A program made the position numbers and the translations under genes. Of a DNA stretch of 64,000 nt, positions 1-32,570 are shown in pieces. The notes beneath the pieces are model-generated. The model was not told where the DNA came from. It did no database searches and saw only the letters and a program-made list of their open reading frames with translations. The stretch comes from a virus, in IMG/VR virus record IMGVR_UViG_3300046170_000371, positions 1-64,000 of that record. One strand, given 5' to 3'. Within the stretch, counting starts at the first letter, position 1, and every line of letters begins with the position of its first letter.

Positions 1-1
1 T

Positions 2-136
2 CTTAAGCAAGTAGAAGATGGCGAAGCTGAAAACGGTATGTACTGGCTCCGTGATGCCGGTAAGTTTCAAGCAATGTTGAATGTTTTCCAGACCATCTCT
101 ATGGGTCCTGACGACTTCATTACTTCTCCTGAGTAA
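2..136 (+). CDS. 3' end of a hypothetical protein (truncated by window edge)
   Basis: Open frame from position 2 to TAA at 134-136, followed by hairpin element copy 1. Confidence 0.5.
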   Translation, partial: LKQVEDGEAENGMYWLRDAGKFQAMLNVFQTISMGPDDFITSPE

Positions 137-145
137 CAGCCTTTA

Positions 146-178
146 GCACCCTAACGGGTGCTTTAGTTCTTTATGTTC
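146..178 (+). promoter_or_regulatory. Hairpin-N12-TGYYC element, copy 1
   Basis: GCACCC-TAAC-GGGTGC (146-161), 12 nt, TGTTC (174-178), 14 nt, ATG at 193. Confidence 0.7.
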
Positions 179-192
179 ATTATCTTTCATTC

Positions 193-618
193 ATGACTAC
201 CACCAAAACCTATGCTCAGTTCAACACTCTCACCATCGTGGGACGTGTATATCACAAAGAGGATTACACTTACCAAGGTAAGGAGCTGACTAAGCTTATC
301 CTCGCTACTGAGCTCAAGAATGACGGTGAGTCTTACCGTGTCGAGTTCACCATTGACGACCGTCAAATGGCTGAGTACTTCACCAAGGGACGTTATGTCA
401 CTGTGACTGGTCACCTCAACGGCGTCGAAGAAATCTTCTTTGACAAGAAGGTTGGTAAGACCCGTCGTCACACCATGCCACTCCTTAAACTCTCTAAGGT
501 TCAGGTTATGCCTGGTGGCTACGGCGCTGTAAAGAAGCAGGATTCTGCTCCTACTGATGACATCATCGACATGGCTCCTGAACTAGAAACTACTGTCACT
601 TCTGAAGCTGCGTTCTAA
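193..618 (+). CDS. SSB-like OB-fold protein
   Basis: FNTLTIVGRV...KGRYVTVTGHL resembles SSB strands; acidic C-terminal tail ending in F. Confidence 0.55.
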   Translation: MTTTKTYAQFNTLTIVGRVYHKEDYTYQGKELTKLILATELKNDGESYRVEFTIDDRQMAEYFTKGRYVTVTGHLNGVEEIFFDKKVGKTRRHTMPLLKLSKVQVMPGGYGAVKKQDSAPTDDIIDMAPELETTVTSEAAF

Positions 619-626
619 CGCACTAC

Positions 627-655
627 ACCATCACCCTAACGGGTGGTGGTTTTTT
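627..655 (+). terminator. Intrinsic terminator
   Basis: ACCATCACCC-TAAC-GGGTGGTGGT followed by a T run, between convergent genes. Confidence 0.8.
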
Positions 656-660
656 ACTTT

Positions 661-1401
661 TCAGTCGAAGCCTCGACCGATGTTCCATAGGTTAGGCATC
701 TCTGAATATGACACTGGACCTGCTTTACTAGCTGGACCAAACTTCTTCTTAAATGAATTAGTTAATGACTTAATTAAAGCGGTACCTTCTCTATCCCCCT
801 TCGCTCTATTGACATACTTATTCTCTGGAGCAATATTGAAATCTGCTGTACTTAACGTTGGATATGCATTGTGTGGGAATATATGACCACCATCTAACCC
901 CATTGTCAGCCTTGAGCCTGTCAAATGGTCGTATCCATTGTTTAACTTCATGCCATAACCCACTGCACGGTTTAACCGTTGCTCTTTTGGCATACCTGTC
1001 ATTGCATCTCCTCGCAGTCCTGGCTTTGCAAGCTCGCTAACTGCACCATCAGACAACATGTCTGTTAATGCCATTCTTGTCTGTCTATCCCCTCTTGATT
1101 CAGCAATTGGACCTTGCTCACCTTCACCCATACCTGGACGTTGGTTAACAATCGGTCCATTCATTTCTGAATCAATTGCCATAAGCAAAGCATTCAGGTT
1201 GTCACGCTTGTTACTGTTACCACGTTCTGTACGTTGTTTAACAGCAAGCTTGCCACCCCTTACTTCACTAATGTCGTAGTGGTCCCCTATTGCTTCTTGA
1301 ACTAGAGATGTTTTCTCTAACTCATCTAATAGTTTTTCTGAGATAATTCCACTTGCTACTAATGCAGCTTTGGTCTTATCCTCATCAAGAGAATAGCCCA
1401 C
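661..1401 (-). CDS. Protein with C-terminal HNH-like nuclease domain
   Basis: DGGHIFPH...NIAPENKYVNRAKG matches the HNH pattern. Confidence 0.55.
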   Translation of the reverse strand: MGYSLDEDKTKAALVASGIISEKLLDELEKTSLVQEAIGDHYDISEVRGGKLAVKQRTERGNSNKRDNLNALLMAIDSEMNGPIVNQRPGMGEGEQGPIAESRGDRQTRMALTDMLSDGAVSELAKPGLRGDAMTGMPKEQRLNRAVGYGMKLNNGYDHLTGSRLTMGLDGGHIFPHNAYPTLSTADFNIAPENKYVNRAKGDREGTALIKSLTNSFKKKFGPASKAGPVSYSEMPNLWNIGRGFD

Positions 1402-1469
1402 TCGTATCTATAACTATGCTTCTTAGGCATTAGTTATTATCATTATCTTTCCTATGTTAACTACTATTT

Positions 1470-1997
1470 ATGATTAAACGAATTGGAAGTGACCTCTTCC
1501 GTGGTGTGCAAATCACACCCCCCGATGACTCAATTGTCGTTCAAGTCTTTGACGTTGATGACACTTTGACTCGCAAACCTGACGGGTTTGACAACACTGG
1601 TATGACTAAAGACCAGTTCTTTGATGCCGCTCGTGACTTTCCACCTGAGCAAGCAATCGTTGACCTAGCTCAAATGTTTCACCGTATGGGTGACGCAATC
1701 GCTATTGCTACTGCTCGTCCTATCGAGCGATTAGAAGAAACTATCGCTTGGCTTGACAAATATAATGTGCCTTATGACACAGTTATGCTCAGCCTTGGTA
1801 ATGAGCCATCTAGCATATGTAAGCAGGCTATGTTACAGCGACTGCAAACTATTTACAATCAAGTAGGGACCTTATTCGATGACTCCATCTATAACATCCA
1901 AGGTGCCCAACTTCAGGGTATATCTACAGTACACGTTAGAACTAATGATGAATACTGGGATGCACATCCTGAACAAGTATATGCCTATGGACTATGA
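1470..1997 (+). CDS. HAD-family phosphatase (T4 PNK 3'-phosphatase-like)
   Basis: Motif I FDVDDTL, motif II ATAR, motif III K, motif IV FDDS. Confidence 0.75.
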   Translation: MIKRIGSDLFRGVQITPPDDSIVVQVFDVDDTLTRKPDGFDNTGMTKDQFFDAARDFPPEQAIVDLAQMFHRMGDAIAIATARPIERLEETIAWLDKYNVPYDTVMLSLGNEPSSICKQAMLQRLQTIYNQVGTLFDDSIYNIQGAQLQGISTVHVRTNDEYWDAHPEQVYAYGL

Positions 1998-2140
1998 ACA
2001 AACATCAAAAGAAACTAGTAAAACTCTTTGAGCAAGCAGACGCTTGTACCTCACGTAAGGATTCCAAGAAACTTATACTCAAAGCAGAGAAGTTGCGAGC
2101 TAAATTATTAGCAAAGCAGCTATTATCTGATGCCTCCTAA
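1994..2140 (+). CDS. Small basic hypothetical protein (48 aa)
   Basis: MNKHQKKLVKLFEQADACTSRKDSKKLILKAEK..., overlaps upstream stop (ATGA). Confidence 0.5.
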   Translation: MNKHQKKLVKLFEQADACTSRKDSKKLILKAEKLRAKLLAKQLLSDAS

Positions 2141-2213
2141 GACAATCCTCTTTGGCTTATCCATGTTCGCACTTGGCGAAATCATGGGAATACTCATACC
2201 TACTATTCACTAA

Positions 2214-2693
2214 ATGTTTAAAACTATAATTGCCACATTGGCTGGACTAGCACTTGCTGTTCCGGCTTCAGCTTCTTCATGGGCTGATGTCAACGAACTA
2301 CAAGAGTTGGTAACAGGCACTGGCACTAAGATACAAAAGCTTGACTGTCCTGAAGGGCAGATGGGCTTTTATCAATTTGACAAAGATAGGAATATTGACC
2401 GACTTGTTTACTGTAAAAACAACGTTGATATGACTGACTCTGACGCTGTATGGGAAGTACTAGTACACGAAGCAACTCATGTCATGCAAGCCTGCTATGG
2501 CGGACCTGTCATGAAAGATTCCTACGTACCCCGTGTGCTCCGTGAACTGCAGGAAACTGCTCCTCACTACTATGCAACCCTTCAGAAATACAGAGGCGAC
2601 CACAAGCGCGTAGAGATTGAAGCCTTCTGGATGGAGCTACGTACTCCTCAAGTAGCCGCTGATTGGATGCTCACTTACTGTTACACCGAATAA
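2214..2693 (+). CDS. Secreted zincin-like metallopeptidase
   Basis: Signal peptide; HEATH (HExxH) with downstream EIEA. Confidence 0.6.
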   Translation: MFKTIIATLAGLALAVPASASSWADVNELQELVTGTGTKIQKLDCPEGQMGFYQFDKDRNIDRLVYCKNNVDMTDSDAVWEVLVHEATHVMQACYGGPVMKDSYVPRVLRELQETAPHYYATLQKYRGDHKRVEIEAFWMELRTPQVAADWMLTYCYTE

Positions 2694-2860
2694 TGAAAAG
2701 ACCTACATGGGAAGTACTTATTGTCCCGGCTACTGGCTGTGGACAAAGCTTTTGGGAGACAATCGAAGCCCAAAATGGTGTTCAAGCTAAACAAATTATG
2801 AAATCACGTTTTCCTTCTAACTGGACGATAGGTAATAACCCTAGACGTCTTGACGACTGA
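2693..2860 (+). CDS. Hypothetical protein
   Basis: MKRPTWEVLIVP..., TAATG coupling to upstream gene. Confidence 0.5.
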   Translation: MKRPTWEVLIVPATGCGQSFWETIEAQNGVQAKQIMKSRFPSNWTIGNNPRRLDD

Positions 2861-2865
2861 CTACT

Positions 2866-2898
2866 GCGCCCTATTGGGCGCTTTGTCGTTTGGTGTCC
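2866..2898 (+). promoter_or_regulatory. Hairpin-N12-TGTCC element, copy 2
   Basis: GCGCCC-TATT-GGGCGC (2866-2881), 12 nt, TGTCC (2894-2898), 14 nt, ATG at 2913. Confidence 0.75.
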
Positions 2899-2912
2899 TT
2901 TGTATATATTGA

Positions 2913-3293
2913 ATGCCACTAACGACTGCAGGAACTGAAGTAGAGAATTTCATTGAGTATCAATTAGAACAAGAAGGCTATAACGTCGAAACACAAGTTG
3001 CTGCTGCTGGCATCAACGTTGACTGGAGCCGTATCGATATTGTTCTACCTGACCGTAATGAAGCTATATCTCTCAAATATCAGGACGTAGCTGGTACTGC
3101 TGAAGAGAAGATTCTCTATGAAGCAGAATCACTATCCCTAATGTGTCATGCACATGACTATGCACGAGGCACCATCGTTTTAACTGGTGGTGGTTGGTCT
3201 CCTGTTAAGTATCTATGGTTCTTAACTGAGTACAACCCTCCCTCAAATGTCCGTGTTATCTCTTATGATGACTTTGTACTTGAGTATATTTAA
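2913..3293 (+). CDS. PD-(D/E)xK restriction-endonuclease-like protein
   Basis: RIDIVL...ISLKYQDVAGTAEEKI...IVLTGGGW pattern; directly upstream of an MTase. Confidence 0.6.
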   Translation: MPLTTAGTEVENFIEYQLEQEGYNVETQVAAAGINVDWSRIDIVLPDRNEAISLKYQDVAGTAEEKILYEAESLSLMCHAHDYARGTIVLTGGGWSPVKYLWFLTEYNPPSNVRVISYDDFVLEYI

Positions 3294-3295
3294 TA

Positions 3296-3811
3296 ATGCC
3301 AGCTGCCTCATTGGCGGCTTTAACTGCATCAACTGGTAATCGTAAAGATACGTGGAATTCACCCGCTGAAATTGTAGATAAAGTCGTTCAATTCTTTGAC
3401 GGTCCTGTTGAATTAGATCCTTGTTCCAACGACCGTGACAACCCTAATGTCCCTTGCCTGCGTTGCTTTACTGAAGAAGACGATGGTTTAGCTCACCAAT
3501 GGAATGCTAACTCCGTCTTCGTTAATCATCCGTATAGCGATAGCAAGCACTGGATTCCTTATGCCCGACGTCAGTTTGACGAAGGCAACGTACAGGAGAT
3601 GATTCTCCTCATTAAATTAGACATCAGTACCAAGTGGTTCCGCTCTATTGCGGACAGACCATGGATTGCTATAAGTAAACGTCTCCGGTTTGGCGACAGT
3701 AAAGGAGCAGCACCTTTCCAATCAGCTCTCATTTACCTCGGTAATAACCCTGGACGCTTCCATGCAATCTTTGGTGACCTTGGACCTATGTACATCTCTA
3801 TTGCGCCCTAA
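3296..3811 (+). CDS. Phage-type DNA N6-adenine methyltransferase
   Basis: DTWNSP...ELDPCS...DDGLAHQW...FVNHPYS (NPPY-like)...APFQSAL. Confidence 0.75.
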   Translation: MPAASLAALTASTGNRKDTWNSPAEIVDKVVQFFDGPVELDPCSNDRDNPNVPCLRCFTEEDDGLAHQWNANSVFVNHPYSDSKHWIPYARRQFDEGNVQEMILLIKLDISTKWFRSIADRPWIAISKRLRFGDSKGAAPFQSALIYLGNNPGRFHAIFGDLGPMYISIAP

Positions 3812-3835
3812 CGGGCGCTTTATTGCTGTATGTCC
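3803..3835 (+). promoter_or_regulatory. Hairpin-N12-TGTCC element, copy 3
   Basis: GCGCCC-TAAC-GGGCGC (3803-3818; the loop TAA is the MTase stop), 12 nt, TGTCC (3831-3835), 14 nt, ATG at 3850. Confidence 0.75.
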
Positions 3836-3849
3836 ATCGGTACATTCAT

Positions 3850-4692
3850 ATGATTGTCTCCTCCCCCCTCGCCACTATTGATATTGAAAATGACGAAGAC
3901 TATATTGGCTGTGACTACTACGGACGTGTAAGTTATGCCAGCTTAGTAATCGCTCATACCTCTCAAGTAACATCTACCAATAGTCGCACTACCTATAACC
4001 CTGGCACACTCGTAATTGTTGCTGCTCAAGGTGATGACCGTAATATCTATGCATTCCTTGCTACAGCTATTGAGGTTCTCTCCGATAAGACTGCAATCCA
4101 TTACTGGCCAACCGAACGTCCTAACCCTGTTAATAAGCTGAAGGTGCTCACACCCATCATGCTTTTACCTGACACATGCTATTCAAGCATGACTCAGGGT
4201 GGACTACGCCTTATTGAACGTGCAGTTTGTGCTCGATACTTACGTGATGAAGCACAGATTGTTACTCCCCTCCCTAAACCAGAAGTAGAACCACAGCCTG
4301 ACACTGTTGTTCGCCTAATCAAAGAAACGACTGGCAAGATTGGATATGTCTACATCCTACGCAACCGCTTAGGTGAAGGCTACAAGATTGGTATTACTGC
4401 CAACATTCATCAACGCTTTAAAGCTCTTGAGGTTGGTACCAAAGCTGATTGTATTGGCTATTGGTCTTCTGAAAACTATAAGAACCTAGAATCTTTTCTC
4501 CACGGACTATTCACACCTGCTCGCGTACCGCAGTCTGAGTGGTTCATGCTCTCACCACATCAACTGGAATTCTCAATTGCGTGGCTTGATGAGAATAGTA
4601 CACCTATTGATATTGACTATCCCGTCACTGTTGACAAAGGCAACTGGTTCAAGCGTTTAATTCAACGAGTAATCTCTTTCATTAAAGACTGA
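3850..4692 (+). CDS. Protein with C-terminal T5orf172/GIY-YIG domain
   Basis: GYVYIL...YKIGIT...RFKAL...LESFLH...PQSEWF; ATG 3850 preferred over 3823. Confidence 0.7.
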   Translation: MIVSSPLATIDIENDEDYIGCDYYGRVSYASLVIAHTSQVTSTNSRTTYNPGTLVIVAAQGDDRNIYAFLATAIEVLSDKTAIHYWPTERPNPVNKLKVLTPIMLLPDTCYSSMTQGGLRLIERAVCARYLRDEAQIVTPLPKPEVEPQPDTVVRLIKETTGKIGYVYILRNRLGEGYKIGITANIHQRFKALEVGTKADCIGYWSSENYKNLESFLHGLFTPARVPQSEWFMLSPHQLEFSIAWLDENSTPIDIDYPVTVDKGNWFKRLIQRVISFIKD

Positions 4693-4698
4693 CAACAT

Positions 4699-4731
4699 GC
4701 GCCCTAACGGGCGCTTTGTCCCTTTGTGTCC
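4699..4731 (+). promoter_or_regulatory. Hairpin-N12-TGTCC element, copy 4
   Basis: GCGCCC-TAAC-GGGCGC (4699-4714), 12 nt, TGTCC (4727-4731), 14 nt, ATG at 4746. Confidence 0.75.
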
Positions 4732-4745
4732 TTTATTGGTACACA

Positions 4746-4982
4746 ATGTCCGAATTCAACTTCGAGATGGTGTCTTTTCCAAGATGCCAAATCGACCAAA
4801 TTCTCATTCAAATGCAACGTGCTGAGACTTTCTGTCGTAAAGCACGCTCTGCCTCCCGTCATCCTGACATGGAGGAGCTTATGGCTGAGCCTACTGAGTT
4901 TTACTCAGGTGCATCTGGATACGCTGGTGCCACCATGCGTGATGTAATCCAGCAGCTTGAATCTCATTTACCGCTGCAATAA
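4746..4982 (+). CDS. Hypothetical protein
   Basis: MSEFNFEMVSFP...; start sits at the fixed spacing from element copy 4. Confidence 0.55.
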   Translation: MSEFNFEMVSFPRCQIDQILIQMQRAETFCRKARSASRHPDMEELMAEPTEFYSGASGYAGATMRDVIQQLESHLPLQ

Positions 4983-4987
4983 CTCTC

Positions 4988-5016
4988 AGGCGTCTATCAT
5001 CGTAGGCGCCTTTTTT
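4988..5016 (+). terminator. Intrinsic terminator
   Basis: AGGCGTCTA-loop-TAGGCGCC followed by T6. Confidence 0.7.
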
Positions 5017-5055
5017 CACGCTTAAATATAACTAACCAAACAAGAAAACTATAAA

Positions 5056-5454
5056 ATGACTAACGCATTTCTCCAGTCCGTCCTCGCTAAGAAAGCCAAC
5101 TCTAAGAAACAAAACGGCTTCACCCTTATCGAGCTGATGGTTGTCGTCGCAATCGTCGGCATCCTATCTGCTGTCGGACTACCTGAACTGACTAAAGCTC
5201 AAGACAAAGCTAAAGATAACGTTGCTGTAGCTACTCTCACCAACGCTGCTAAAGAATGTGCTCTGTCACTCATCCTCAATGGTGATGACACTGACTACAT
5301 CACTGATGAGACTGCTGGCACTGGCTGGGCAGCACAAGGTGTAACTGGCAGCTGTGATGCAGACGAAGTCCTCACAGCTAAGTCTGAAACAGAGACTGAA
5401 TGGACCATCACCTTTGTTGGCTCCACTCCTGGTACTGCAACTGAGGTTGAGTGA
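5056..5454 (+). CDS. pilA: Type IV pilin (prepilin, class III signal)
   Basis: Basic leader, then NG|FTLIELMVVVAIVGILSAVGLP; C-terminal Cys pair. Confidence 0.85.
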   Translation: MTNAFLQSVLAKKANSKKQNGFTLIELMVVVAIVGILSAVGLPELTKAQDKAKDNVAVATLTNAAKECALSLILNGDDTDYITDETAGTGWAAQGVTGSCDADEVLTAKSETETEWTITFVGSTPGTATEVE

Positions 5455-6018
5455 TGAACTTAGCATCTACCATCGTTAGTGTTGCAATCATGGGAGCTTC
5501 GGCTCCTTCTATGATGCAAATGTCTATTGCTCCATATGAAGCACAACTTAAAGCAAAGAACTTAGGCATTGCTGAAACAGCTGCTGTTGTCTTTGCCTCT
5601 ACTTACGAAGGTACCCTTGATATCCCTGTCGATACAGAGACTTGCACATCAGAAGCACGAGAAGGTACTGCTAATGCTTATAGCGTTACCTGTACTCACG
5701 GCACTGACAAGTATGTACAAAGTGTTACTCGTGCTTTCCGTCTTGCTGTACCTGACACTGACTTAGACAACGGTGATGGTGCATCAACATCACGTGAGTA
5801 CGCTTACGAAACTCCTACACGCTTCTCTGGACTCTCCTGTCCCTTACTACGATGAATGGGGTACTAATGGTTATAACGACCAGTACTACAGCGTTTTAAA
5901 TGGCGCTTGTATCCCTATTCCTGTATGGACTCAAACTGCTTATCAGTTTTCTAGTCCAGATGCATGGCTCTATGACGTTAATAACTACAACGGATGGGGT
6001 ATACATCCTGACTACTAA
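5454..6018 (+). CDS. Pilin-like / minor-pilin-like protein (frameshifted near 5835)
   Basis: Hydrophobic N-terminal helix MNLASTIVSVAIMG; ORFs 5451-5855 and 5773-6018 join by one indel. Confidence 0.45.
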
Positions 6019-6644
6019 TGAATATTATTCAAACATTAAGAGAAGCTTACGAGGATTGGCTATGGAAGTACGGTCCTGACCGTCGCGACCTTGCTAAAAC
6101 TCGTTTAGCTTTACATAAGCAAGCAATAGCTGATGGTCAACCTGGCCCTTACCTAGAGCCTGAAAATTATAACTTTTAAATAATATGTGCTCACTACTAA
6201 TGACTATGTTTATAGTAGGCGCAGTTGAAGTCACACCTGGTGTGATGGCTGTTGACCTACTTGACACTGACAAAGTTTCATTAAACAATGGCTCTGCTGT
6301 TGAAACTATTTATATGAAAACTGATGATTATCTCGACTGCTGGGGATGACTTCCCCTTTAATGACCTCGATAGACTGAATGACGAGGAAGAAGCACTGCC
6401 TGATATCCCACCATTCCCTTCTATCCATGGACAAGCAACACCTCCAAGAACAAATACTAGACGAAATAGACGACGTCGTATACAGGTATCACGTACTACC
6501 TCACTCTGGCTTACTGCCTGACTACTTCATTCACTATTGGGATTTAGCAGAGCTTGTCTCTGCTTACTTTGATGAACCCTTTTATAAGCCTCAAAGGTCT
6601 TCTGAAGACCAGGTAAAATAGAGTAATACTGAATCTCTATTACT

Positions 6645-7297
6645 ATGGGTAAGAAGAACAAAGGTAAATACAATAAGCTTGACTACCACGGTAAGCATAG
6701 AAGCTGACCGAAAAGATGGCTAAGCAGTACGGTATTGACGTTTCCTGAATACGGCAATACCGGCCGTCCTGGTGAAAACTACAATAACAAGAAAACTTAC
6801 GACGACCTTAAAAAAGATATCTCTAGTGCTGCTGCAAACGACTACGACGTACGCCGTTCACTAGAAGCAGCTTCATTGTCTGGCAATAAAAAAGCACAGA
6901 AGATTGGCAGCATTAGTAATGCTTCCGAAGCTTACGCTGCTACTCGCTTTATGGAGAAAAACCCATAAGAAAGCGTATGGCTAATGGCGGTGCTTACGAC
7001 GGTGCTAATGACCAAGGCGGTGTAACCAGCTACTGGGTCAATAAAGACCGCGACAAACTTAAAGATAGTATGTCTGCTCCTGAACAGCAGAAAGCTGCTT
7101 CAGGTAGCGATGAGCCTTACGAAGAAAGCTCTCAGCTTAGTGATGCTCGTAAAACTGTTGACGAGTTTGATAACAAAGACTATGACATCTATAAGTCTGG
7201 TGCTGGTGAAGCACAGCGCAAAGAAGCATCTCAGCAATTCTTAGGCAAATATAAACTTGACCTTAAACAGAAAGCTAATTTCAAGCCAACTATTTGA
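6645..7297 (+). CDS. Hydrophilic hypothetical protein (frameshifted)
   Basis: ATG 6645 (MGKKNKGKY) plus ORFs 6735-6968 and 6977-7297; preceded by TAAAATAGA. Confidence 0.5.
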
Positions 7298-7317
7298 TGA
7301 TTAGCGTAGCATGCAAA

Positions 7318-7341
7318 GCCCAGTCATGCACTGGGTTTTTT
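7318..7341 (+). terminator. Intrinsic terminator
   Basis: CCCAGT-CATGC-ACTGGG followed by T6. Confidence 0.75.
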
Positions 7342-7356
7342 AATGTCTGCTATTAA

Positions 7357-7466
7357 AAAGCTACAGTAACTACGCTGTATTCCTATATAACTAGAAATTA
7401 AATACCCTAGAGGGGTGTAATAAAAAAGAGATATATAAGGGATTAGTGTAGCTTGCGTAGTTTTTT
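7357..7466. repeat. Inverted-repeat element A (CTACGCTAA-type units plus TATATA around an AT-rich core)
   Basis: Left arm AAAGCTACAGTAACTACGCTGTATTCCTATATA; right arm reverse complement AAAAACTACGCAAGCTACACTAATCCCTTATATA. Confidence 0.65.
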
Positions 7467-7678
7467 CTAAAAACCCTGTACCCCAACTGTGCCTGTTTTT
7501 GGGTGGTACCAACGGTATACAAGCAAAAAAGCACCCCGCAGAACTGCTACATAACTGTACTTCTGTAAAACTGTACATACATATGTCCTTGTGAGGACAG
7601 TTCCCACAGATATCGTGCTCAATCCGGCTCATCACAACGTTGTGTTTTATGCTATGGGTACAATTGCTGAGGCACTAG

Positions 7679-7831
7679 TTGAAACGCGTAACGGTCCTCA
7701 TGCCACCAGACATACACAAACGGCTCAAGCTGCTTGGGTTTGACAAAGATAAGACAATGAACGACCTAATTCTTACAGCTGTACATAAGTACTTAAGTGA
7801 AGCTGCGGTCCAAATAGAGCATCCTGAATGA
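7679..7831 (+). CDS. Ribbon-helix-helix (ParG/CopG-like) DNA-binding protein, 50 aa
   Basis: TTG start; KRVTVLMPPDIHKRLKLLGFDKDKTMNDLILTAVHKYL is a typical RHH pattern; missing from the ORF track (<60 aa). Confidence 0.7.
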   Translation: MKRVTVLMPPDIHKRLKLLGFDKDKTMNDLILTAVHKYLSEAAVQIEHPE

Positions 7832-7862
7832 CGACTGTACAAATGTATTGAACTATTGGATT

Positions 7863-7895
7863 GCGCCTTATCAGGCGCTTTTTTCTTGCATGTCC
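7863..7895 (+). promoter_or_regulatory. Hairpin-N12-TGTCC element, copy 5
   Basis: GCGCCT-TATC-AGGCGC (compensatory T-A pair), 12 nt, TGTCC (7891-7895), ATG at 7915. Confidence 0.7.
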
Positions 7896-7914
7896 AATAC
7901 ATGGCTACAACCAC

Positions 7915-8277
7915 ATGGTCCTCTACGAACTGGACTCCGAACCGGGGACGAAAGTCATTCGGTCGCCTAAATCAGACGAGCCTCTCGACGGATGCACCCT
8001 TCCACAAAGGGCAGCGGCGATTGAAGAGCTCCACGATTGGTCACTCAACTTCGACACTGGTGTTAATCCCTATTGCTTGTTCCTTGACATCATCGGCTAC
8101 TCAGCTGACCGATGGGGCTGCTATGCCTACTGTCACGACCTCAAAGACTGCGGAGAAATCTTTGGCTACAAAGAACTCTGCTTATTAGCTGATGCTCTCA
8201 AAATATTTGAAGACAACGGCTATGACCAGGTGTATGCCTGGTGTGACGCTTTAAATGAAAGCGAGCACGAAGACTAA
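7915..8277 (+). CDS. Hypothetical protein
   Basis: MVLYELDSEPG..., within ORF 7861-8277. Confidence 0.55.
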   Translation: MVLYELDSEPGTKVIRSPKSDEPLDGCTLPQRAAAIEELHDWSLNFDTGVNPYCLFLDIIGYSADRWGCYAYCHDLKDCGEIFGYKELCLLADALKIFEDNGYDQVYAWCDALNESEHED

Positions 8278-8358
8278 GTGCTAGTTATATGATTGGGAGT
8301 ACGTAATTGTACTCCCTATCTGTTAACTTAAGGTTTAGTAAATAATGATACTTATTAA

Positions 8359-8703
8359 ATGTTTATTAAATCTATCTCTGCTATCGCTGCTGCTGCCCTG
8401 CTCAGTGTTGGCTCATCCGTCCAGGCAGGAGGCTCAATGCTTTCTTCCTGGTACGGTGGATATTTCCACGGCAGAACCACAGCCAACGGTGAAACTTACG
8501 ATATGTACGGACATACCGCCGCACATAAGTCGCTACCTTTCGGTACAAAACTACGTGTTTGCTACCAAGGATGCGTGGATGTACGTATTAATGATCGCGG
8601 CCCCTACATTGGTGCTCGTGAGCTTGATTTATCGTACGGAGCAGCACAAGCAATCGGACTAACACATCCTGGCGTTGATTACGTCAGCTTTACTTATATC
8701 TAA
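8359..8703 (+). CDS. rlpA: RlpA-like lytic transglycosylase (double-psi beta-barrel)
   Basis: Signal peptide; SWYG..FHGRTTANGE.YDM...TAAHKSLPFGT...VRINDRGP...LDLSYGAA. Confidence 0.85.
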   Translation: MFIKSISAIAAAALLSVGSSVQAGGSMLSSWYGGYFHGRTTANGETYDMYGHTAAHKSLPFGTKLRVCYQGCVDVRINDRGPYIGARELDLSYGAAQAIGLTHPGVDYVSFTYI

Positions 8704-8706
8704 TGC

Positions 8707-9090
8707 ATGACTACTGGCTACATATATGTCATTGAGAACATTGTTCGAGACTTGGGAGGGTTTAAAGTTGGTATAACAACTAAGCCCTCACGTCGCTTTA
8801 AAGAGCTATCTATTGGCTTAAAAGCACTAGTTGTAGGACTGTGGGAAACCACTGACTACAAGCTCATAGAACGCAGTCTCCACGCTCAATACACTGACGC
8901 TAGAGTTCCTCAATCTGAATGGTTTGCTTTAACCACTAAAGAACTTGTAGACGTCATTAAATATTTGAACTCTATTGCGAATAACTTGCAGTTAATGCAT
9001 GACTTTCAACCACTGCACCCTACTATTGTTCCAACAATCAAACGTGTAAATTATCAAGCACCTTTGCCTAGTTGGCTGCACAGTTGTTAG
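8707..9090 (+). CDS. T5orf172/GIY-YIG family protein
   Basis: GYIYVI...FKVGIT...RRFKEL...ARVPQSEWF. Confidence 0.7.
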   Translation: MTTGYIYVIENIVRDLGGFKVGITTKPSRRFKELSIGLKALVVGLWETTDYKLIERSLHAQYTDARVPQSEWFALTTKELVDVIKYLNSIANNLQLMHDFQPLHPTIVPTIKRVNYQAPLPSWLHSC

Positions 9091-9395
9091 TGTTCGCTGA
9101 TATATTAAATATAGTTGGGAGCATTCCCTGCTCCTGACTGTTACTAAACAGGAGAAAAGAATGTCTAAAACTATTAAACGTGAATCGACTAAAGGATTTA
9201 TTCAACACCTTGAACACCAGCTGAAAGAACGTAAAGAAGCACGAGACTTCGAACGAGATTATAAAATTAGAACACAAGATTTAGACCTTTAAGTATATTT
9301 ACTTGTGTTCATTTGTAAACAATCAGGCTATGATTGTTAAGTAAGGTTAACCACACCTGAGTATTACCCAATAAACAAAACACCGCATTAATTCA

Positions 9396-10482
9396 ATGGC
9401 TTCAACAGTATTACAACGTCAATCTGGCGTTACTTCTAACTGGGAGCAGTTTTGCAAGTGGGTAACATCAACAGACAACCGCCTCTATGTGGGTTGGTTT
9501 GGCGTGTTGATGATTCCTACGTTGCTTGCTGCAACCATCTGCTTCATTATCGCCTTCGTTGGCGCACCCCCTGTAGATATCGATGGCATTCGTGAACCAG
9601 TTGCTGGATCGCTCCTTTACGGAAATAACATTATTTCAGGAGCAGTTGTCCCGTCTTCAAACGCAATCGGACTGCACTTCTATCCCGTCTGGGAAGCAGC
9701 CACTCTTGACGAATGGCTCTATAACGGCGGACCATTCCAGCTCGTTATCTTTCACTTCCTTATCGGTATCTTCGCTTACATGGGACGCGAATGGGAACTT
9801 AGCTACCGACTAGGTATGCGCCCCTGGATTTGCGTTGCTTACTCTGCACCCGTTGCAGCAGCATCCGCAGTCTTCCTCGTCTATCCCTTCGGTCAGGGTT
9901 CTTTCTCTGACGCAATGCCACTTGGCATCTCTGGCACATTCAACTACATGTTGGTGTTCCAAGCAGAGCACAACATCCTCATGCACCCCTTCCACATGCT
10001 GGGAGTAGCAGGTGTATTCGGTGGCTCACTGTTCTCTGCAATGCACGGCTCACTCGTTACCAGTTCATTGGTGCGTGAAACCACTGAAACTGAATCACAA
10101 AACTATGGCTACAAGTTCGGACAAGAAGAAGAGACCTACAACATCGTTGCCGCTCATGGCTACTTTGGTCGACTTATCTTCCAATACGCTTCTTTTAACA
10201 ACAGCCGTAGCCTTCACTTCTTCCTTGCTGCTTGGCCAGTGGTTGGTATCTGGTTTACAGCTCTTGGTGTTAGCACCATGGCTTTTAACCTCAATGGTTT
10301 CAACTTCAACCAGTCAATTGCAGACGGTCAGGGTCGAGTCCTCAACACGTGGGCAGACGTACTGAACCGCGCTGGTCTTGGGATGGAAGTGATGCATGAG
10401 AGAAATGCTCACAACTTCCCACTAGATTTGGCAGCTGCTGAATCTACACCCTGTGGCACTGATTGCACCTTCTATTGGTTGA
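9396..10482 (+). CDS. psbA: Photosystem II D1 protein (one indel near 10450)
   Basis: Unambiguous D1 sequence; removing one C restores the end [15 protein letters not shown]. Confidence 0.98.
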
Positions 10483-10657
10483 TTAATGCAGGAGCTGGGT
10501 TTTTCATCAGACGTACCGCTAGAGATTGCGGTAGCTGGCACTCAAATCTATGAAATAGACGGTGCTGGCACTAAATGGGCACCCACTAAAGGAACCCGCA
10601 AATATAACGCTGATGCTTTCATTGTCATCCGCAAACCTACACCTGTTATATCTTCGA

Positions 10658-10867
10658 ATGCTTGAACTGATTACTTATTACGTTATTGGTGGCGCACTGC
10701 TTATCGGTGCACCAGCAATCTTCTTTCTGATTGTTTTCATGCCTGCCCTGCAGAACACTAAAGGGCGCATGGTTGGTTACAAAGACCACAAAACATACGG
10801 TGATATCTCGTCTTATGAGAACGCACCTTCAGATCAAACGACCTTTTATCTGGAGTTATCACAATGA
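10658..10867 (+). CDS. Small single-TM protein between psbA and psbD
   Basis: [45 protein letters not shown]. Confidence 0.6.
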
Positions 10868-11919
10868 CAACCGCAACATTAACCGCACCTAAAAGAGGAT
10901 ACTTTGACCTTATTGACGACTGGCTTAAACGCGATCGCTTCGTCTTTATTGGCTGGTCTGGACTCCTACTTCTACCTACTGCTTATCTGGCCATTGGTGG
11001 CTGGCTTACTGGCACGACCTTTGTCACAAGCTGGTATACCCATGGGTTGGCGTCTTCTTACCTTGAGGGCGCTAATTTTCTCACGTCAGCTGTGTCAACG
11101 CCTGCTGATGCTATGGGTCATTCTCTTCTTTTACTTTGGGGTCCTGAGTCTCAGGGCGACTTCGTCCGCTGGTGTCAACTTGGAGGGCTTTGGGCCTTTG
11201 TTGCTCTCCACGGTGCATTTGCACTGATTGGTTTCATGCTTCGGCAATTCGAAATCAGCAGACTTGTCGGCATCCGTCCGTACAACGCAATTGCATTCTC
11301 TGGACCTATCGCTGTATTCGTCAGCGTATTCCTTATCTATCCACTAGGACAGAGCAGCTGGTTCTTCGCACCATCATTTGGTGTCGCAGCAATCTTTCGC
11401 TTCCTTCTGTTCCTACAAGGCTTCCATAACTGGACGCTCAATCCATTCCACATGATGGGAGTAGCTGGCATCCTCGGTGGTGCTCTGCTATCTGCCATTC
11501 ATGGCGTAACTGTAGAGAACACACTGTATGAAGACGGCGAACAGGCTAATACCTTTAAGGCATTTGATAGCACGCAAGAAGAGGAGACTTATTCGATGGT
11601 TACTGCCAATCGCTTTTGGTCGCAAATCTTCGGTATTGCTTTCAGTAATAAGCGCTGGCTTCACTTCTTTATGCTGTTTGTACCTGTTATGGGGCTATGG
11701 ACTAGCTCCATTGGTATTATCGGTCTGGCTCTTAATCTTCGTGCTTACGATTTTGTAAGCCAAGAGATACGAGCAGCAGAAGACCCTGAGTTTGAGACGT
11801 TCTACACGAAGAACATCTTGCTTAACGAAGGTCTGCGTGCATGGCTTGCACCAGTTGACCAACCTCACGAAAACTTCATCTTCCCAGAAGAAGTATTACC
11901 ACGAGGTAACGCACTATGA
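10864..11919 (+). CDS. psbD: Photosystem II D2 protein
   Basis: Full D2 sequence ending [10 protein letters not shown]. Confidence 0.98.
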
Positions 11920-11928
11920 TTCAGTCAA

Positions 11929-12165
11929 ATGATTAAACTTGCTCTACTATTAATCATTGCCTCACCAACAATGGCGGAAACTGAAGCACTTGCTAAATGG
12001 CCCACCTATTGTATTCGTTCAGTTGAAGAGAATTCTGACGGAACATACCTATTAGATATGCCTGGATGGCCTTATGGTATGGATGATCGTCCCTTTCTAG
12101 TTACAACTTTACAATATATAGATGATACTCCTCAATGCACACCAGACGACCCGCGAATGCAATGA
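11929..12165 (+). CDS. Small secreted hypothetical protein
   Basis: Signal peptide, Cys pair. Confidence 0.5.
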   Translation: MIKLALLLIIASPTMAETEALAKWPTYCIRSVEENSDGTYLLDMPGWPYGMDDRPFLVTTLQYIDDTPQCTPDDPRMQ

Positions 12166-12410
12166 TTAAATCACTACTCACTTTTATGTTCGCTGCTCTG
12201 ATGTGGGTGCAAGTCCCACAGTGGAGCGATGACTGGAGTAAGTGCGCTGTTGATGTGCCTGACGTTCAATGTCATTGGTACATCACAGCACCCGACAGCA
12301 CCATGGGCGTTGGCTTTAGCTGGGCTAATGCACCGTGGTTCTCTGCCGAAGGGCTAAGAGATGTTGGTAACTTAAAGAATACTGTTGAGTCTTTACAGAA
12401 AACATTATGA
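12162..12410 (+). CDS. Small membrane/secreted hypothetical protein
   Basis: MIKSLLTFMFAALMWVQVPQWSDDWSKCAVDVPD...CHWY. Confidence 0.55.
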   Translation: MIKSLLTFMFAALMWVQVPQWSDDWSKCAVDVPDVQCHWYITAPDSTMGVGFSWANAPWFSAEGLRDVGNLKNTVESLQKTL

Positions 12411-12573
12411 TTGAAACAATCAGCTTAAATGTGATGGAATTTGACCAACAACAACTAAACGATATTCGTGCTGCAGTTGTCTATTACATGCAGAGAAATA
12501 TATCTATCAGAAACCCCCGCTACGAGGAATATGAAGATATACTTAAGACACTTAACAAAACATTACATACAAA

Positions 12574-12765
12574 ATGACTACAGTTACAGAAGACGGCGGC
12601 AGAACAAATATCTACGCCAAAGAACCCACTATGTACTCACAGGAGATTACCGTGACCCACAACGAAAAAGCTGAAATGTTGAACGGCCGTTTAGCTATGC
12701 TCGGAGTAATTGCTGCCATCGGCGCATACGCAGTTACCGGACAGTTGATTCCTGGAATCTTCTGA
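12574..12765 (+). CDS. hli: High-light inducible protein
   Basis: AEMLNGRLAMLG...TGQLIPGIF. Confidence 0.95.
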   Translation: MTTVTEDGGRTNIYAKEPTMYSQEITVTHNEKAEMLNGRLAMLGVIAAIGAYAVTGQLIPGIF

Positions 12766-12792
12766 TTAAGTTAAACAATTGAATAGCCTTAT

Positions 12793-12826
12793 GCGCCCTA
12801 ACGGGCGCTATATTTATGAAGTGCCC
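12793..12826 (+). promoter_or_regulatory. Hairpin element, copy 6
   Basis: GCGCCC-TAAC-GGGCGC (12793-12808), 13 nt, TGCCC opening a second hairpin GCCC-GGCGATT-GGGC. Confidence 0.7.
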
Positions 12827-12862
12827 GGCGATTGGGCTTGAACACATATATCTCACAATCAA

Positions 12863-13030
12863 ATGGATATCTCACGCGAACAGCTTGACGAATTGACCAG
12901 TGTCATTGAAGACACAGTTGAGTACGCTTGCGACCAACAGATGCTGTCAGGCGAACTCGCTTGGACAGTCATTGAGTGCCTGGCTACAGCAAAGATTGCT
13001 GAGCTCAAAGGGGAGCTGGCTGCAGCTTGA
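12863..13030 (+). CDS. Small acidic hypothetical protein (55 aa)
   Basis: MDISREQLDELTSVIEDTVEYACDQQMLSGELAWTVIECLATAKIAELKG; follows element copy 6. Confidence 0.6.
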   Translation: MDISREQLDELTSVIEDTVEYACDQQMLSGELAWTVIECLATAKIAELKGELAAA

Positions 13031-13199
13031 TTGACACTGTAAAACTTGCAGACCTCTTCATGCACTTTGTAGAGCAGCTGCTTATTCAGCACGAAGCTGA
13101 AGACCCTTTGCGTGTCTATCAACTAGTAGCTGATAGATGCCAAGCACAAGCAAACCGTTTAGCAGCTGAAGACCCAGACCGCAATCGTTAACCACCTAT

Positions 13200-13232
13200 G
13201 CGCCCTAACGGGCGCTGTATTTCACTGTGCCC
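13200..13232 (+). promoter_or_regulatory. Hairpin element, copy 7
   Basis: GCGCCC-TAAC-GGGCGC (13200-13215), 12 nt, TGCCC opening the hairpin GCCC-TTAT-GGGC. Confidence 0.7.
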
Positions 13233-13263
13233 TTATGGGCTTATTCACTTACATATCACACAC

Positions 13264-13914
13264 ATGACCGTAACCTCTGCTCCTACATCCAACGCACTTG
13301 CTACCGAGCTCATCACCGAGATGGTTGGTAGCTCCAGCAGCGTTGACATGATGATTGGCATTGGCCTCAACAAAGAATCAGATGCTGTGTTCTTCCAGTA
13401 TCTGGGCGAAGAGCAGACTCCATCTGCCTTGATGCTTCCCTCTGGCAAGCCACTCACTCGTCTCGCCAACGTTCGTCTTGTTGGACTGACTGTTGCTGAC
13501 GGCGTCGGTGCATTCAATGCCACCAAGCTCAACGTCTACATCGAGTCCACTGCAGGTCGGCAAGTAATGCTTACCTCAGGTCTCAACACACTGTGGTCTC
13601 AGTACCTGGTGTCTGGCTTAATGGCTTGCTTCAACGAGTTCTCTCTTGACCAGACCTTCACCCTTGACACTTGGAAAGGTACTTCACAGATGCGTCCTTG
13701 CTTCTCTGCTATCCGTCAAGCGGGTAACAAGATGTCCTGTCAGATGCTGACTGACCAGCTCAAGGAAGCTAAGGCTGACCGTGACGCAGACCGCACTATC
13801 AAAATCATGCGTGACGCTGTTGAGATTATCAACAACTCTGTCACTGGTGGTGCTGTACAGCCTGTGTCTGTGTCTGAGCCTACTACCACTATCGAGGAAG
13901 CACTCGACTTCTGA
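13264..13914 (+). CDS. Hypothetical protein (acidic C-terminal tail ending in F)
   Basis: MTVTSAPTS...EEALDF; long ORF. Confidence 0.65.
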   Translation: MTVTSAPTSNALATELITEMVGSSSSVDMMIGIGLNKESDAVFFQYLGEEQTPSALMLPSGKPLTRLANVRLVGLTVADGVGAFNATKLNVYIESTAGRQVMLTSGLNTLWSQYLVSGLMACFNEFSLDQTFTLDTWKGTSQMRPCFSAIRQAGNKMSCQMLTDQLKEAKADRDADRTIKIMRDAVEIINNSVTGGAVQPVSVSEPTTTIEEALDF

Positions 13915-14074
13915 ATGCTTAGCTCAGCTGCGACTGAGTTACATGCAGCACATCGGTATCTAACTGGTGTGTTGCTTCATCTCAGTATTGATTCCGAGCA
14001 TATGACTGCTCGAAGACTCATTGAACTCATTGAGTATTTCCATAACCATCCAACTGAATACCTGGAGCTAATTC

Positions 14075-28136: not shown

Positions 28137-28156
28137 GCGCCCTAACGGGCGCTTTA
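28137..28156. terminator. Hairpin GCGCCC-TAAC-GGGCGC, copy 8 (no TGTCC), between convergent genes
   Basis: Exact hairpin between stops at 28134 (+) and 28160 (-). Confidence 0.6.
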
Positions 28157-31441: not shown

Positions 31442-31444
31442 ATA

Positions 31445-31502
31445 CGTTGAACCGCACATATTGCGGTCGCAAGTAGTCTGATGAAAGCAGACGAAGCAAC
31501 GG
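31445..31502 (+). ncRNA. Glutamine riboswitch (glnA RNA motif, glutamine-I class)
   Basis: P1 CGTTG/CAACG, P2 ACCGCA/TGCGGT, junction CGCAAGTA, P3 GTCTG/CAGAC, GAAG (E-loop); TAGAAT -10 at 31432. Confidence 0.85.
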
Positions 31503-31532
31503 GAAACGTACCACATCACTATGGAGTTTCCA

Positions 31533-31715: not shown

Positions 31716-31738
31716 TTGACAATCAAATAAGTGTATAT

Positions 31739-31763
31739 CCCTCCTATCGGAGGGTCTTTTTTT
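31739..31763 (+). terminator. Intrinsic terminator
   Basis: CCCTCC-TATC-GGAGGG followed by a T run. Confidence 0.75.
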
Positions 31764-31831
31764 GTTCTTTTTTAACATATAATAATCTAAGCGATGAGTA
31801 TAAATCGCTATACATACGTATTAAATCTATT

Positions 31832-32204
31832 ATGAAATCTATTATTGCCGTTGCAGCTCTGTCTGCTTTGTCTGCCCCTGCTTTCGCTGGTCCTTATGCC
31901 AACATCGAAAACAATGCAGGCTGGGTTGGTGACGACTTCACCGCAGCTGTGACTGAAGTTCACGCTGGCTATGAGTTTGAAGCTAGCGATTCTGTTAGCC
32001 CTATATGTACAGGCAGGTCCTGCTTTCATCTCTATTGAAGATGAAGACTTGGAGACCGAAGTGTCTGGTAAGTTTGGTGTTACTGCCGATGTCTCAGAAT
32101 CATTCGAACTCTACGGAGAAGTCGCATTCCTCACGGAAGACCAAGAATTTGACGTGGATACCCTTACATTGGGTACCAAGGTTGGTGCCACCTACCGCTT
32201 CTGA
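31832..32204 (+). CDS. Small outer-membrane beta-barrel/porin-like protein (indel near 32000)
   Basis: Signal peptide ...PAFA|GPY; amphipathic strands; C-terminal GATYRF. Confidence 0.7.
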
Positions 32205-32220
32205 TAAATAAACAACTGTT

Positions 32221-32247
32221 CCCCCTCTAACGAGGGGGTATTTTTTT
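32221..32247 (+). terminator. Intrinsic terminator at the + / - strand convergence
   Basis: CCCCCTC-TAAC-GAGGGGG followed by T7. Confidence 0.8.
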
Positions 32248-32255
32248 GTTCTTTT

Positions 32256-32570
32256 TTAACTGTAGATATCTTTGTAAACGTTATCTAGCTGTGGTCTAAA
32301 CCCTTCGCTCTTGCGTTTGTTCGCACCAATCTCTCGGTTACGTTCAATCTGTGCACCTAAGCCAACGCCCATACCACCTGTGCCTGGTGTTTGTGGTGTT
32401 GATGCTTGTGGACGCTTCGCTTGATAAGCACGGTCACCACGATATGCACGTGTCCTGCTTACTGCTTGAGCACGCTCGTTATATGCACCACTACCGTTGT
32501 AGTCACTTTTGTCTTGGTCGCTAAGCCTGCGCCTATCAACGGGTCCATTCTTGACACCAAACTTCTGCAC
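32256..32570 (-). CDS. Basic hypothetical protein
   Basis: ORF preceded by TACAATAGA. Confidence 0.5.
   Translation of the reverse strand: MQKFGVKNGPVDRRRLSDQDKSDYNGSGAYNERAQAVSRTRAYRGDRAYQAKRPQASTPQTPGTGGMGVGLGAQIERNREIGANKRKSEGFRPQLDNVYKDIYS

Follow-up and report, generated by a model that had tools for sequence, protein, structure and literature searches.

The 64,000-nucleotide (nt) stretch analysed here, which we call the window, comprises positions 1 to 64,000 of IMG/VR virus record IMGVR_UViG_3300046170_000371 and carries a repeated intergenic element in which a 6-bp G+C-rich hairpin, a T-rich spacer of 12 nt, a short box beginning with T-G and the start codon of the next gene follow one another at nearly constant distances. 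Our comparison with related contigs revealed that this element recurs in several hundred copies in predominantly marine metagenome contigs, that its stem is selected as a structure and that it marks joints at which relatives have swapped accessory genes. We favour, with a probability of roughly 0.45, the reading that the element is a joint similar to the PeSL units of T4-type phages, in which a terminator half would close the gene on the left and a leader half lacking a Shine-Dalgarno (SD) sequence would serve the gene on the right, while host RNA polymerase would enter from outside and recombination would occur at the repeats.

A preliminary description of this DNA had reported seven copies as well as an eighth hairpin at 28137, with variant stems and loops, and all of them lie where it placed them (Table 1). 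Six of the eight hairpins read exactly GCGCCC-N3-5-GGGCGC, a form expected zero times (100 shuffles), and the remaining two carry two-sided, compensatory changes in the stem. The spacer measures 12 nt in six of the seven copies and 13 nt at 12793. The pentamer that opens the box is TGTCC in four copies, TGCCC in two and TGTTC in one, and at copies 146, 2866, 3803 and 4699 the ATG follows exactly 14 nt past it. Genome-wide, TG[TC][TC]C-N14-ATG occurs at 10 places, among which only those four copies represent gene starts behind a hairpin. The covariance-model scan proposed in the preliminary description was carried out with a model built on 23 copies (the seven window copies plus 16 taken from four related viral contigs). 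Run over the whole genome, this model returned seven full copies at E <=2e-9, all on the + strand between 143 and 13237, and weaker relatives at 31736 and 32219, with nothing convincing in the late region at 33-87 kb. All seven full copies in the window are confined to 0-13.3 kb, among small accessory open reading frames (ORFs), and this accessory gene array probably consists of early genes. A search of Rfam, likewise proposed at the outset, matched no family to the hairpin-box element at gathering scores in the window, and an E-value scan of positions 1-14000 gave two chance-level matches, both away from the element.

Table 1. Hairpin-box copies and related hairpins in the window.
Feature	Position	Strand	Components
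Copy 1	146..195	+	Hairpin 146-161, GCACCC-TAAC-GGGTGC; 12-nt spacer; TGTTC 174-178; ATG 193; model E 7e-12
Copy 2	2866..2915	+	Hairpin 2866-2881, loop TATT; TGTCC 2894-2898; ATG 2913 of PD-(D/E)XK nuclease gene
Copy 3	3803..3852	+	Hairpin 3803-3818; TGTCC 3831-3835; ATG 3850 of GIY-YIG/T5orf172 gene
Copy 4	4699..4748	+	Hairpin 4699-4714; TGTCC 4727-4731; ATG 4746
Copy 5	7863..7917	+	Hairpin 7863-7878, GCGCCT-TATC-AGGCGC; TGTCC 7891-7895; probable ATG 7915, 19 nt on
Copy 6, two-hairpin form	12793..12865	+	Hairpin 12793-12808; 13-nt spacer; TGCCC 12822-12826; ATG 12863
Copy 7, two-hairpin form	13200..13266	+	Hairpin 13200-13215; TGCCC 13228-13232; ATG 13264
Box-less hairpin	28137..28152	+	Between convergent genes 27751-28134 (+) and 28160-28498 (-)
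Related terminator-like hairpin	627..650	+	CCC-TAAC-GGG apex, after gene 193-618; no box; model E 0.19
Two TATC/TAAC-loop hairpins	31739..32258	+	31739-31754 and 32221-32238; model E 5e-5 and 1e-3

In IMG/VR, the exact 16-mer hairpin was found at 51 loci, which is about the number given by our own chance estimate; roughly ten of these were judged by eye to be relatives, and several are syntenic. The hairpin-plus-TG pattern was found in at least 118 metagenome contigs, nearly all of them marine and many with multiple copies. A scan of these listed contigs and of the relatives for the hairpin alone (perfect 6-bp stem, at least five G+C, loop starting with TA) yielded 397 copies, 342 of them non-redundant. 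Their loop is TAAC in 249 cases and TATC in 50, and the 5' arm, of which there are 41 distinct versions, is C-rich throughout while the 3' arm is G-rich. Since 226 of the non-redundant copies fall outside the pattern used for the search, they are unbiased for the part downstream of the hairpin. Their tail reads T in 93, 84 and 96% at +1 to +3, and their box T77 G60 (%) at +11/+12 followed by T91 G83 T80 T62 C56 T81 T80 T68 at +13 to +20, with TGTTC (81 copies) and TGTCC (18) as the commonest pentamers. Chance is excluded as the source of the hairpin-box pattern. Moreover, the 12-nt spacing and the box, whose absence from related genomes would have spoken against the preliminary description, are conserved well beyond this genome, because the 226 pattern-independent copies show them. 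The spacing reported earlier (12 nt, 13 once) and the ATG 14 nt past the pentamer in four copies thus stand, whereas TGTCC is not the family consensus, which is TGTTC. Likewise, the 14-nt distance from pentamer to ATG is the modal value in a family range of 14-18 nt and is not fixed.

The position of the element between genes is equally regular. Among 234 copies for which an ATG of the next ORF was found, it lies at +32, +33, +34, +35 or +36 in 55, 41, 21, 31 and 11 cases, respectively (159 copies); of the 299 TG-bearing copies, 65 gave no ORF starting with ATG, several of these having a GTG or TTG start or reaching the end of the contig. On the other side, an upstream ORF was found for 295 copies, with its stop codon 5-11 nt 5' of the stem in 178 and supplied by the TAA of the loop in 62; in copy 3, for example, the loop TAA is the stop codon of a Dam-type methylase gene (3296-3811). 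G is nearly absent at -4 to -1 upstream of the hairpin. In a subset of copies from many contigs, the recurrent word TAACAGCC(A/T)TT directly adjoins the hairpin on its 5' side (in the window at 134-145, for instance), and since this word includes a stop codon, the unit may bring its own. The arrays hold up to 16 copies in contigs of 8.7-12.9 kb, and the related genome G001 (which holds locus L038) has 12 model matches in 4.1 kb. The argument of the preliminary description that the element must be more than a plain terminator is therefore upheld by a box conserved 12 nt after the hairpin and by a start codon at +32 to +36.

Synechococcus phage S-EIV1 has no match to the element, and a distant blastn comparison of cultured phages with a 4.4-kb array gave two matches of chance size only. 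The T4-like cyanophage Syn9 has a single weak model match (E 0.013), so we do not regard the element as shared with it. Two marine Synechococcus genomes gave no model match among the 150 of 334 and 150 of 482 candidates that were scored, which is a weak negative. Used as protein queries, the cassette gene 3850-4692 found no relatives in viral contigs and a 66-aa neighbour found only G001 itself, and L053, the closest relative by its pilin gene, has no copy of the element. We found no description of the element in the literature searched or in the main text, supplements aside, of bioRxiv 10.1101/325100.

The hairpin is maintained as a structure. In a small alignment, five of the six stem pairs change on both sides, but this first count was circular, as the copies had been chosen for perfect stems. 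For the stem test, 225 sites were chosen by loop, tail and box only, with pairing not required; all six Watson-Crick pairs formed at 197 of them, compared with 20 (maximum 33) when the 3' arms were re-dealt among sites, and at least five pairs at 207, and the paired sites comprise 38 different 5' arms. The stem is thus selected as a structure. It is exactly 6 bp long in 311 of the 342 copies, with a hairpin energy of -11.2 +/- 1.1 kcal/mol, and at least five T occur in the first 8 nt after it in 301 of the 342. Hairpin and U-rich tail together carry all the sequence marks of an intrinsic terminator, and the same CCC-TAAC-GGG apex with a T-tract is listed for the synthetic terminators L3S3P21 and L3S1P13 in Table 1 of PMC7843447. 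Furthermore, two tRNA-Asp (GTC) genes in cassette arrays (L268:8595-8670 and L272:1425-1498) are each followed within 6-11 nt by a hairpin-box copy. Because the stop codon lies so close to the hairpin or inside it, a terminating ribosome should hinder folding of the hairpin, and whether transcription ends there may depend on how tightly the ribosome trails the polymerase.

As the preliminary description had noted, the hairpin at 28137 lacks the box: the covariance model matches it at positions 4-24 only, and its orthologues in L008, L011 and L023 are likewise without a box. Such box-less copies lie between convergent genes, here and in these relatives, where termination is all that is called for, and the one at 28137 most probably represents the plain terminator form. 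The two weaker hairpins at 31739-31754 and 32221-32238 are each followed by TTTTTTTGTTCTTTTTTAAC, which puts TGTTC about 8 to 10 nt past the stem instead of 12; at the corresponding place, the relative G003 reads TTGCTCTTTTTTAAAC.

The box half looks like a signal for the start of the following gene. The 201 ATG-aligned copies lack an SD sequence, with G at no more than 16% anywhere between -17 and -1. Starts without SD in cyanobacteria have been connected with U-rich signals near -25 and weak structure (described in PMC5397173), and the start half of our element is probably an SD-less leader. By contrast with a promoter, the ATG-aligned copies show few -10 marks (A at -11 in only 40%, T at -7 in only 39%), TAnnnT occurs between box and ATG in 100 of 181 copies, which is fewer than in composition-matched shuffles (114 +/- 6), at scattered distances, and a consensus promoter scan called one of the seven window copies (2883-2910). 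The gap from hairpin to ATG is about 31-35 nt in most copies, and no -35/-10 pair fits into 31 nt. We found no host-type (sigma-70) promoter within the unit. Other candidate signals were tried and rejected. The -10-like hexamers of a leaderless promoter had first been picked by eye and did not exceed their frequency in shuffles, NtcA/CRP-like dyads and LexA-like sites were seen by eye in single copies only and inconsistently, and pairing of the box with 16S rRNA was limited to one 8-nt match (~654) that is near chance by our own estimate (0.14). A likeness of the 5' flank and 5' arm to a T7-like cyanophage promoter was dropped, as no polymerase gene was found.

Box and hairpin belong together. 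Across the collected DNA, the 8-mer TGTTCTTT was counted at 122 distinct places, 84 of which have a perfect hairpin 8-13 nt to the 5' side, 77 of them at exactly 12; among the 12 listed matches without a perfect hairpin, nine have an imperfect or 5-nt-loop hairpin by eye and three are coding. The box thus hardly ever stands alone before a gene. The second hairpin that the preliminary description had seen opening at the box is real and conserved in relatives for the copies at 12793 and 13200 and predicted for 4699, where the putative stem TGTGTCC/GGTACACA spans the box, but it is a minority form, found in 26 of the 342 copies. In copy 6, TGCCC opens a second hairpin at 12823-12837 (orthologues in L009, L020 and L272), and in copy 7 one at 13229-13240, followed by a second box, TTATTC, at 13241-13246 (orthologues in L009, L020 and L032). 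Throughout this two-hairpin form, a small second hairpin starts at the box position, T-G is retained at +13/+14 in 23 of the 26, and a fresh box (often TTGTTCACTTAC) comes after the second hairpin, with the ATG 19-26 nt past it in most. The reappearance of the box directly after the second hairpin links it to the start codon; T-G seems to belong with the first hairpin, and the remainder of the box with the ATG. The orthologue of copy 5 in L272 retains a ATGGTCCTCTAC start.

Comparison of contigs bore out the view that the copies bracket units of one or two genes which relatives gain, lose and swap in the manner of PeSLs. When positions 0-16 kb of the window were aligned to metagenome contigs, 29 alignments of at least 150 nt had a free left end, and six of these ends lie 1-2 nt 5' of a hairpin (2864, 2865, 4698 three times, 12792), compared with an estimated 0.04 by chance. 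Homology blocks open at 2864/2865 in L268 and L264 and at 4698 in L272, L264 and L247, while just one of the 25 free right ends lies within a unit. Since left ends lie at hairpins and right ends outside the units, the blocks span from a hairpin across one or more genes to about the stop codon. In L264, a nuclease-methylase pair is joined directly to the gene at 4746, with exactly 3850-4692 missing, and the spacer of the copy at the junction has its first six letters as in copy 3803 and its last six as in copy 4699, so that the junction looks like a crossover inside the unit. The missing cassette encodes a product with GIY-YIG/T5orf172 domains (PF13455, PF10544), and for this reason a homing-type nuclease may have brought it in. 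L272 is without 2647-4698 and has an extra ~0.9 kb just before copy 12793; this insertion encodes, at L272:7990-8500, a protein of ~60-nt (~20-codon) tandem repeats rich in Ser, Lys and Thr. In L268, a different, HNH-like gene and the tRNA-Asp beside it replace 2684-2863. The largest replacement was found in G001, whose structural proteins are 95-100% identical to those of our phage (TerL 99%, sigma factor 97%). Past the shared control region described below, it carries a wholly different gene set of 17 small ORFs with 11 perfect copies, and this array matches the window at the elements only. Contigs from public runs contain more gene-sized indels, some beside copies and others at plain gene borders, with short sides. 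Joints at 3799, 7861, 7891 and 12792 adjoin copies, which is weak evidence as their sides are short (20-51 nt) at 85% likeness; indels at plain gene borders without a copy include 8703-9092 and 14451-14645. On these alignments, the element marks joints where relatives have swapped accessory genes.

The record from which the window was taken is 87,159 bp long and rated complete by CheckV, the window being its first part. Its psbA and psbD are ~82% matches to T4-like cyanophages, and a T4-like assignment suggested by these genes was ruled out by its family-A DNA polymerase (PolA), which is encoded in pieces, its VapE-type primase-helicase and a terminase (TerL) 55% identical to that of S-EIV1; an exonuclease and an RNR piece are also encoded. 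Gene content thus places the phage in an S-EIV1-related marine lineage rather than among T4-like phages. Its 87-kb size, split polymerase and psbA fit the lineage that the main text of Flores-Uribe et al. (bioRxiv 10.1101/325100) describes as uncultured, widespread in the sea, carrying photosynthesis genes and possibly temperate. The psbA product shares 94% identity with its counterpart in Synechococcus sp. MIT S9451, from which we assume a marine Synechococcus-type host. Genes at 0-31 kb lie nearly all on the + strand, tightly packed and mostly without SD sequences. The sole transcription gene recognised in the phage genome encodes a host-type, group-2-like sigma factor (68280-69215, - strand; L052:1012-1947), a full-length member of the cyanobacterial RpoD/SigA family with regions 1.2, 2, 3 and 4 (TIGR02997, 400.6 bits, above cut-off; 97% identical in G001); the complete genome of S-EIV1 has no match to it.

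A non-coding stretch of ~0.6-0.8 kb (86.3-87.1 kb; 86533-87159, L281:2533-3159) separates the leftward late genes from the rightward accessory array. Repeats of the CTACG type and recurring TATAGGGGGCTA-like words lie within it, its conservation with G001 is 86%, and it is probably a control or origin region; a consensus sigma-70 promoter scan of its + strand called none at 86533-87159. The record opens inside a cassette gene (window 1-136), which L268 and L170 extend upstream with more cassettes, and no ORF runs off the right end of the record to join it. The 'complete' record is therefore probably broken in its hyperplastic region. The sole Rfam match of the window at gathering score is a glutamine riboswitch (RF01739, 43.9 bits) at 31443-31505.

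In the reading that we favour, the 6-bp G+C hairpin with its UAAC-type loop and the following U-U-U-(A/U)-U-U would act as an intrinsic terminator or as the 3'-end hairpin of the gene on the left. The box (T-G)-T-G-T-(T/C)-C-T-T-T and the G-poor, A/U-rich 14-18 nt behind it would form the leader of the gene on the right, which would start translation without an SD sequence at the ATG 32-36 nt past the hairpin. Since no host-type promoter was found within the unit, transcription of the array by host RNA polymerase would begin outside the units, and part of the transcripts would end or be cut at each hairpin. Moreover, because the same unit of ~50 nt recurs many times in one orientation, recombination between copies could add, remove and exchange genes. 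Such a joint fits the terminator marks, the box-less form, the geometry of the start codons and the pattern of exchange. However, several points weigh against it. A series of 12-16 terminators should extinguish one long transcript, barring read-through or restart. The rigid 12-nt distance between hairpin and box is not needed by a plain translation leader, and the rarity of the box without the hairpin likewise goes beyond what such a leader needs. One copy lies 21 nt before a tRNA-Ile gene, where a translation signal is unneeded (n=1). The first, atypical copy in G001 lies ~80 nt past the control region with no clear ORF just before it and suits a start signal better than a terminator. Furthermore, homology blocks start at the hairpin and not after it, so that the hairpin travels with the downstream gene. 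Finally, the contigs of RNA run X20, which contained 5% of the words, gave little cover in a few short pieces, one of which ends its match at 142, and these pieces do not bear on transcription or on RNA ends.

As passage through serial terminators and the rigid 12-nt distance are left unexplained, four other readings stay alive. The one we rank highest among these, though still unlikely, is a true PeSL-type unit in which the ~31 nt behind the terminator would be a promoter for host RNA polymerase, perhaps with the phage sigma factor; each gene would then be transcribed as an insulated unit, its mRNA leaderless or with a very short leader. This would suit arrays of 12-16 units in which a good terminator closes each group of 1-2 genes, homology blocks that begin at the hairpin, a first G001 copy that precedes the first gene of its array and, by analogy, PeSLs, whose stem-loop lies just upstream of the promoter (PMC4122927). 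In addition, G000 and G001 have both the sigma gene and the element, whereas S-EIV1 has neither, a comparison of two close relatives with one genome. The unit itself argues otherwise: 31 nt are too short for a -35/-10 pair, A reaches only 40% at the -11 place, and TAnnnT is rarer than in shuffles and keeps no fixed distance to the ATG, although an ordinary -10 box would be expected for the phage sigma factor as a member of the RpoD/SigA family. We also consider it unlikely, and rank it after the PeSL-type promoter, that hairpin and box form one signal with a reader not recognised here, acting, for example, in terminator-coupled re-initiation at the T-G 12 nt past the stem or in loading of factors as at rrn or nut sites, which would take polymerase through a dozen serial terminators, and so relaunching or licensing host RNA polymerase gene by gene without -35/-10. 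If so, the element would be a conserved transcription control element that is widespread in ocean cyanophages. A still less probable possibility is an RNA processing joint, where an RNase E-like host or phage nuclease would cut one long transcript in the U-rich strand after the hairpin, leaving the upstream mRNA a protective 3' hairpin and starting the downstream mRNA near the box. A hairpin followed by a G-poor, U-rich single strand, the fixed distance between two parts that always occur together and the lack of a promoter in the unit are all in keeping with it, and array transcripts need processing anyway because tRNA genes lie inside them. The second idea of the preliminary description, a processing or translation signal, also fits the SD-less, G-poor leader. 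Nonetheless, a U-tract set directly on the stem is a mark of termination and not of a cut site, and read-through of many terminator-like hairpins would be no less of a problem.

We hold it to be improbable that hairpin and box jointly affect the polymerase during elongation, either as a hairpin-stabilised pause at the U/G 11-13 nt past the stem or as a nut/rrn-like site for factor loading. Rigid spacing would be natural for such a module, as would a box that is rarely alone and a T-G that stays in place in 23 of the 26 two-hairpin variants even though the rest of the box has moved; serial terminators would, moreover, demand some read-through. In rrn leaders a hairpin is followed by boxA, the enterobacterial core of which has one mismatch to TGTTCTTTA in nine places. 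However, the boxA found behind a hairpin in rrn leader and spacer sequences from two marine Synechococcus genomes reads GAACCTGGACAA and GAACCTTGACAA, matching about four of the first eight places of our box, the likeness of a T-rich 9-mer to one motif is weak evidence, and no N- or Q-like gene was identified, with no systematic search made. Movement of the cassettes at the DNA level, with hairpin and pentamer as the target of a site-specific or single-strand enzyme (attC-like or hairpin transposase-like), is highly improbable. Arrays of small promoter-less genes in the same orientation, each bounded by a hairpin repeat, and a cassette-sized indel exactly between two copies would be expected of it; yet the L264 junction looks like an ordinary crossover in a shared unit, many indels of the region have no copy beside them and fall on plain gene borders, the short stems pair perfectly with no extrahelical bases, and strand as well as stop/start geometry point to RNA. 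We give the least credence of all to the promoter that the preliminary description had compared to those of phage N4, read by a phage-encoded RNA polymerase. The resemblance lies in a conserved hairpin that precedes early-type genes and keeps a constant distance to a conserved sequence downstream of it, but this reading is disfavoured, as no recognisable gene for such a polymerase was found in the genome. Pfam and PHROGs named none in 21 of the 22 ORFs of at least 250 aa, of which 11 matched no family (the one outside the scan is a 447-aa ORF at 83479-84822), a search for PF00940 found no match, which is weak as its control matched nowhere either, and the 2353-aa protein matches virion/tail-fibre families (DUF7483, phrog_19943) and not a polymerase. 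Furthermore, the stem letters vary freely, the loop is 4 nt long, and the hairpin follows stop codons with its U-tract directly on the stem.

For this uncultured lineage, the element provides a sequence handle on the expression and exchange of accessory genes. Where arrays consist of tiny ORFs that defy annotation, it shows where genes begin and end and at which joints they are reshuffled. As its start half contains none of the known promoter or ribosome-site signals, identifying its reader would inform either SD-less initiation or non-canonical transcription control in marine cyanobacteria. Moreover, the compact unit could serve as an insulating part for genetic engineering of cyanobacteria.

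Among known systems, the promoters of the N4 virion RNA polymerase likewise precede early genes and pair a hairpin with a conserved site a set distance downstream; our element differs in its 4-nt loop, its free stem letters, its U-tract on the stem and the lack of a polymerase gene found here. The hairpins of integron attC sites are imperfect with extrahelical bases, whereas the stems of the element are perfect at 197 of 225 sites; IntI was not searched for. At rrn boxB-boxA and lambdoid nut sites, an RNA hairpin and a short box are repeated along operons with terminators. The element shares with them an adjacent boxB-like RNA hairpin and, a short and constant way downstream, a pyrimidine-rich box, but its box TGTTCTTTA differs from the marine Synechococcus boxA (GAACCTTGACAA or GAACCTGGACAA) and its hairpin has the U-tract of a terminator. 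With intrinsic terminators it has in common a short G+C stem with C-rich 5' and G-rich 3' arms, a stable tetraloop, an immediate U-tract and a place after stop codons, down to the apex shared with L3S3P21 and L3S1P13 (PMC7843447), whereas neither a conserved box 12 nt downstream nor an ATG fixed at +32 to +36 belongs to a plain terminator. The closest parallel is with the PeSLs described from cassettes of T4-type phages (RB49/phi1, PST/T4, nt-1/KVP40; PMC4122927, PMC2839356), the units of which include a sigma-70-like promoter (-35, ~17 nt, -10; PMC4122927). We do not file the element as a PeSL, because the promoter and the SD sequence that define PeSLs are absent and the lineage is another one: in place of -35/N17/-10 and SD, it has ~31 nt from stem to ATG with a private box at a fixed 12 nt, and it is carried by a phage of an S-EIV1-related lineage instead of a T4-type myovirus. 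Nevertheless, both are short composite intergenic units with a terminator stem-loop at the 5' end and the start codon of the next gene at the 3' end, both recur, always in the same orientation, among the small accessory genes of hyperplastic regions, and both sit at indels and replacements between close relatives, which shows that PeSL-style modular shuffling extends beyond T4-type phages.

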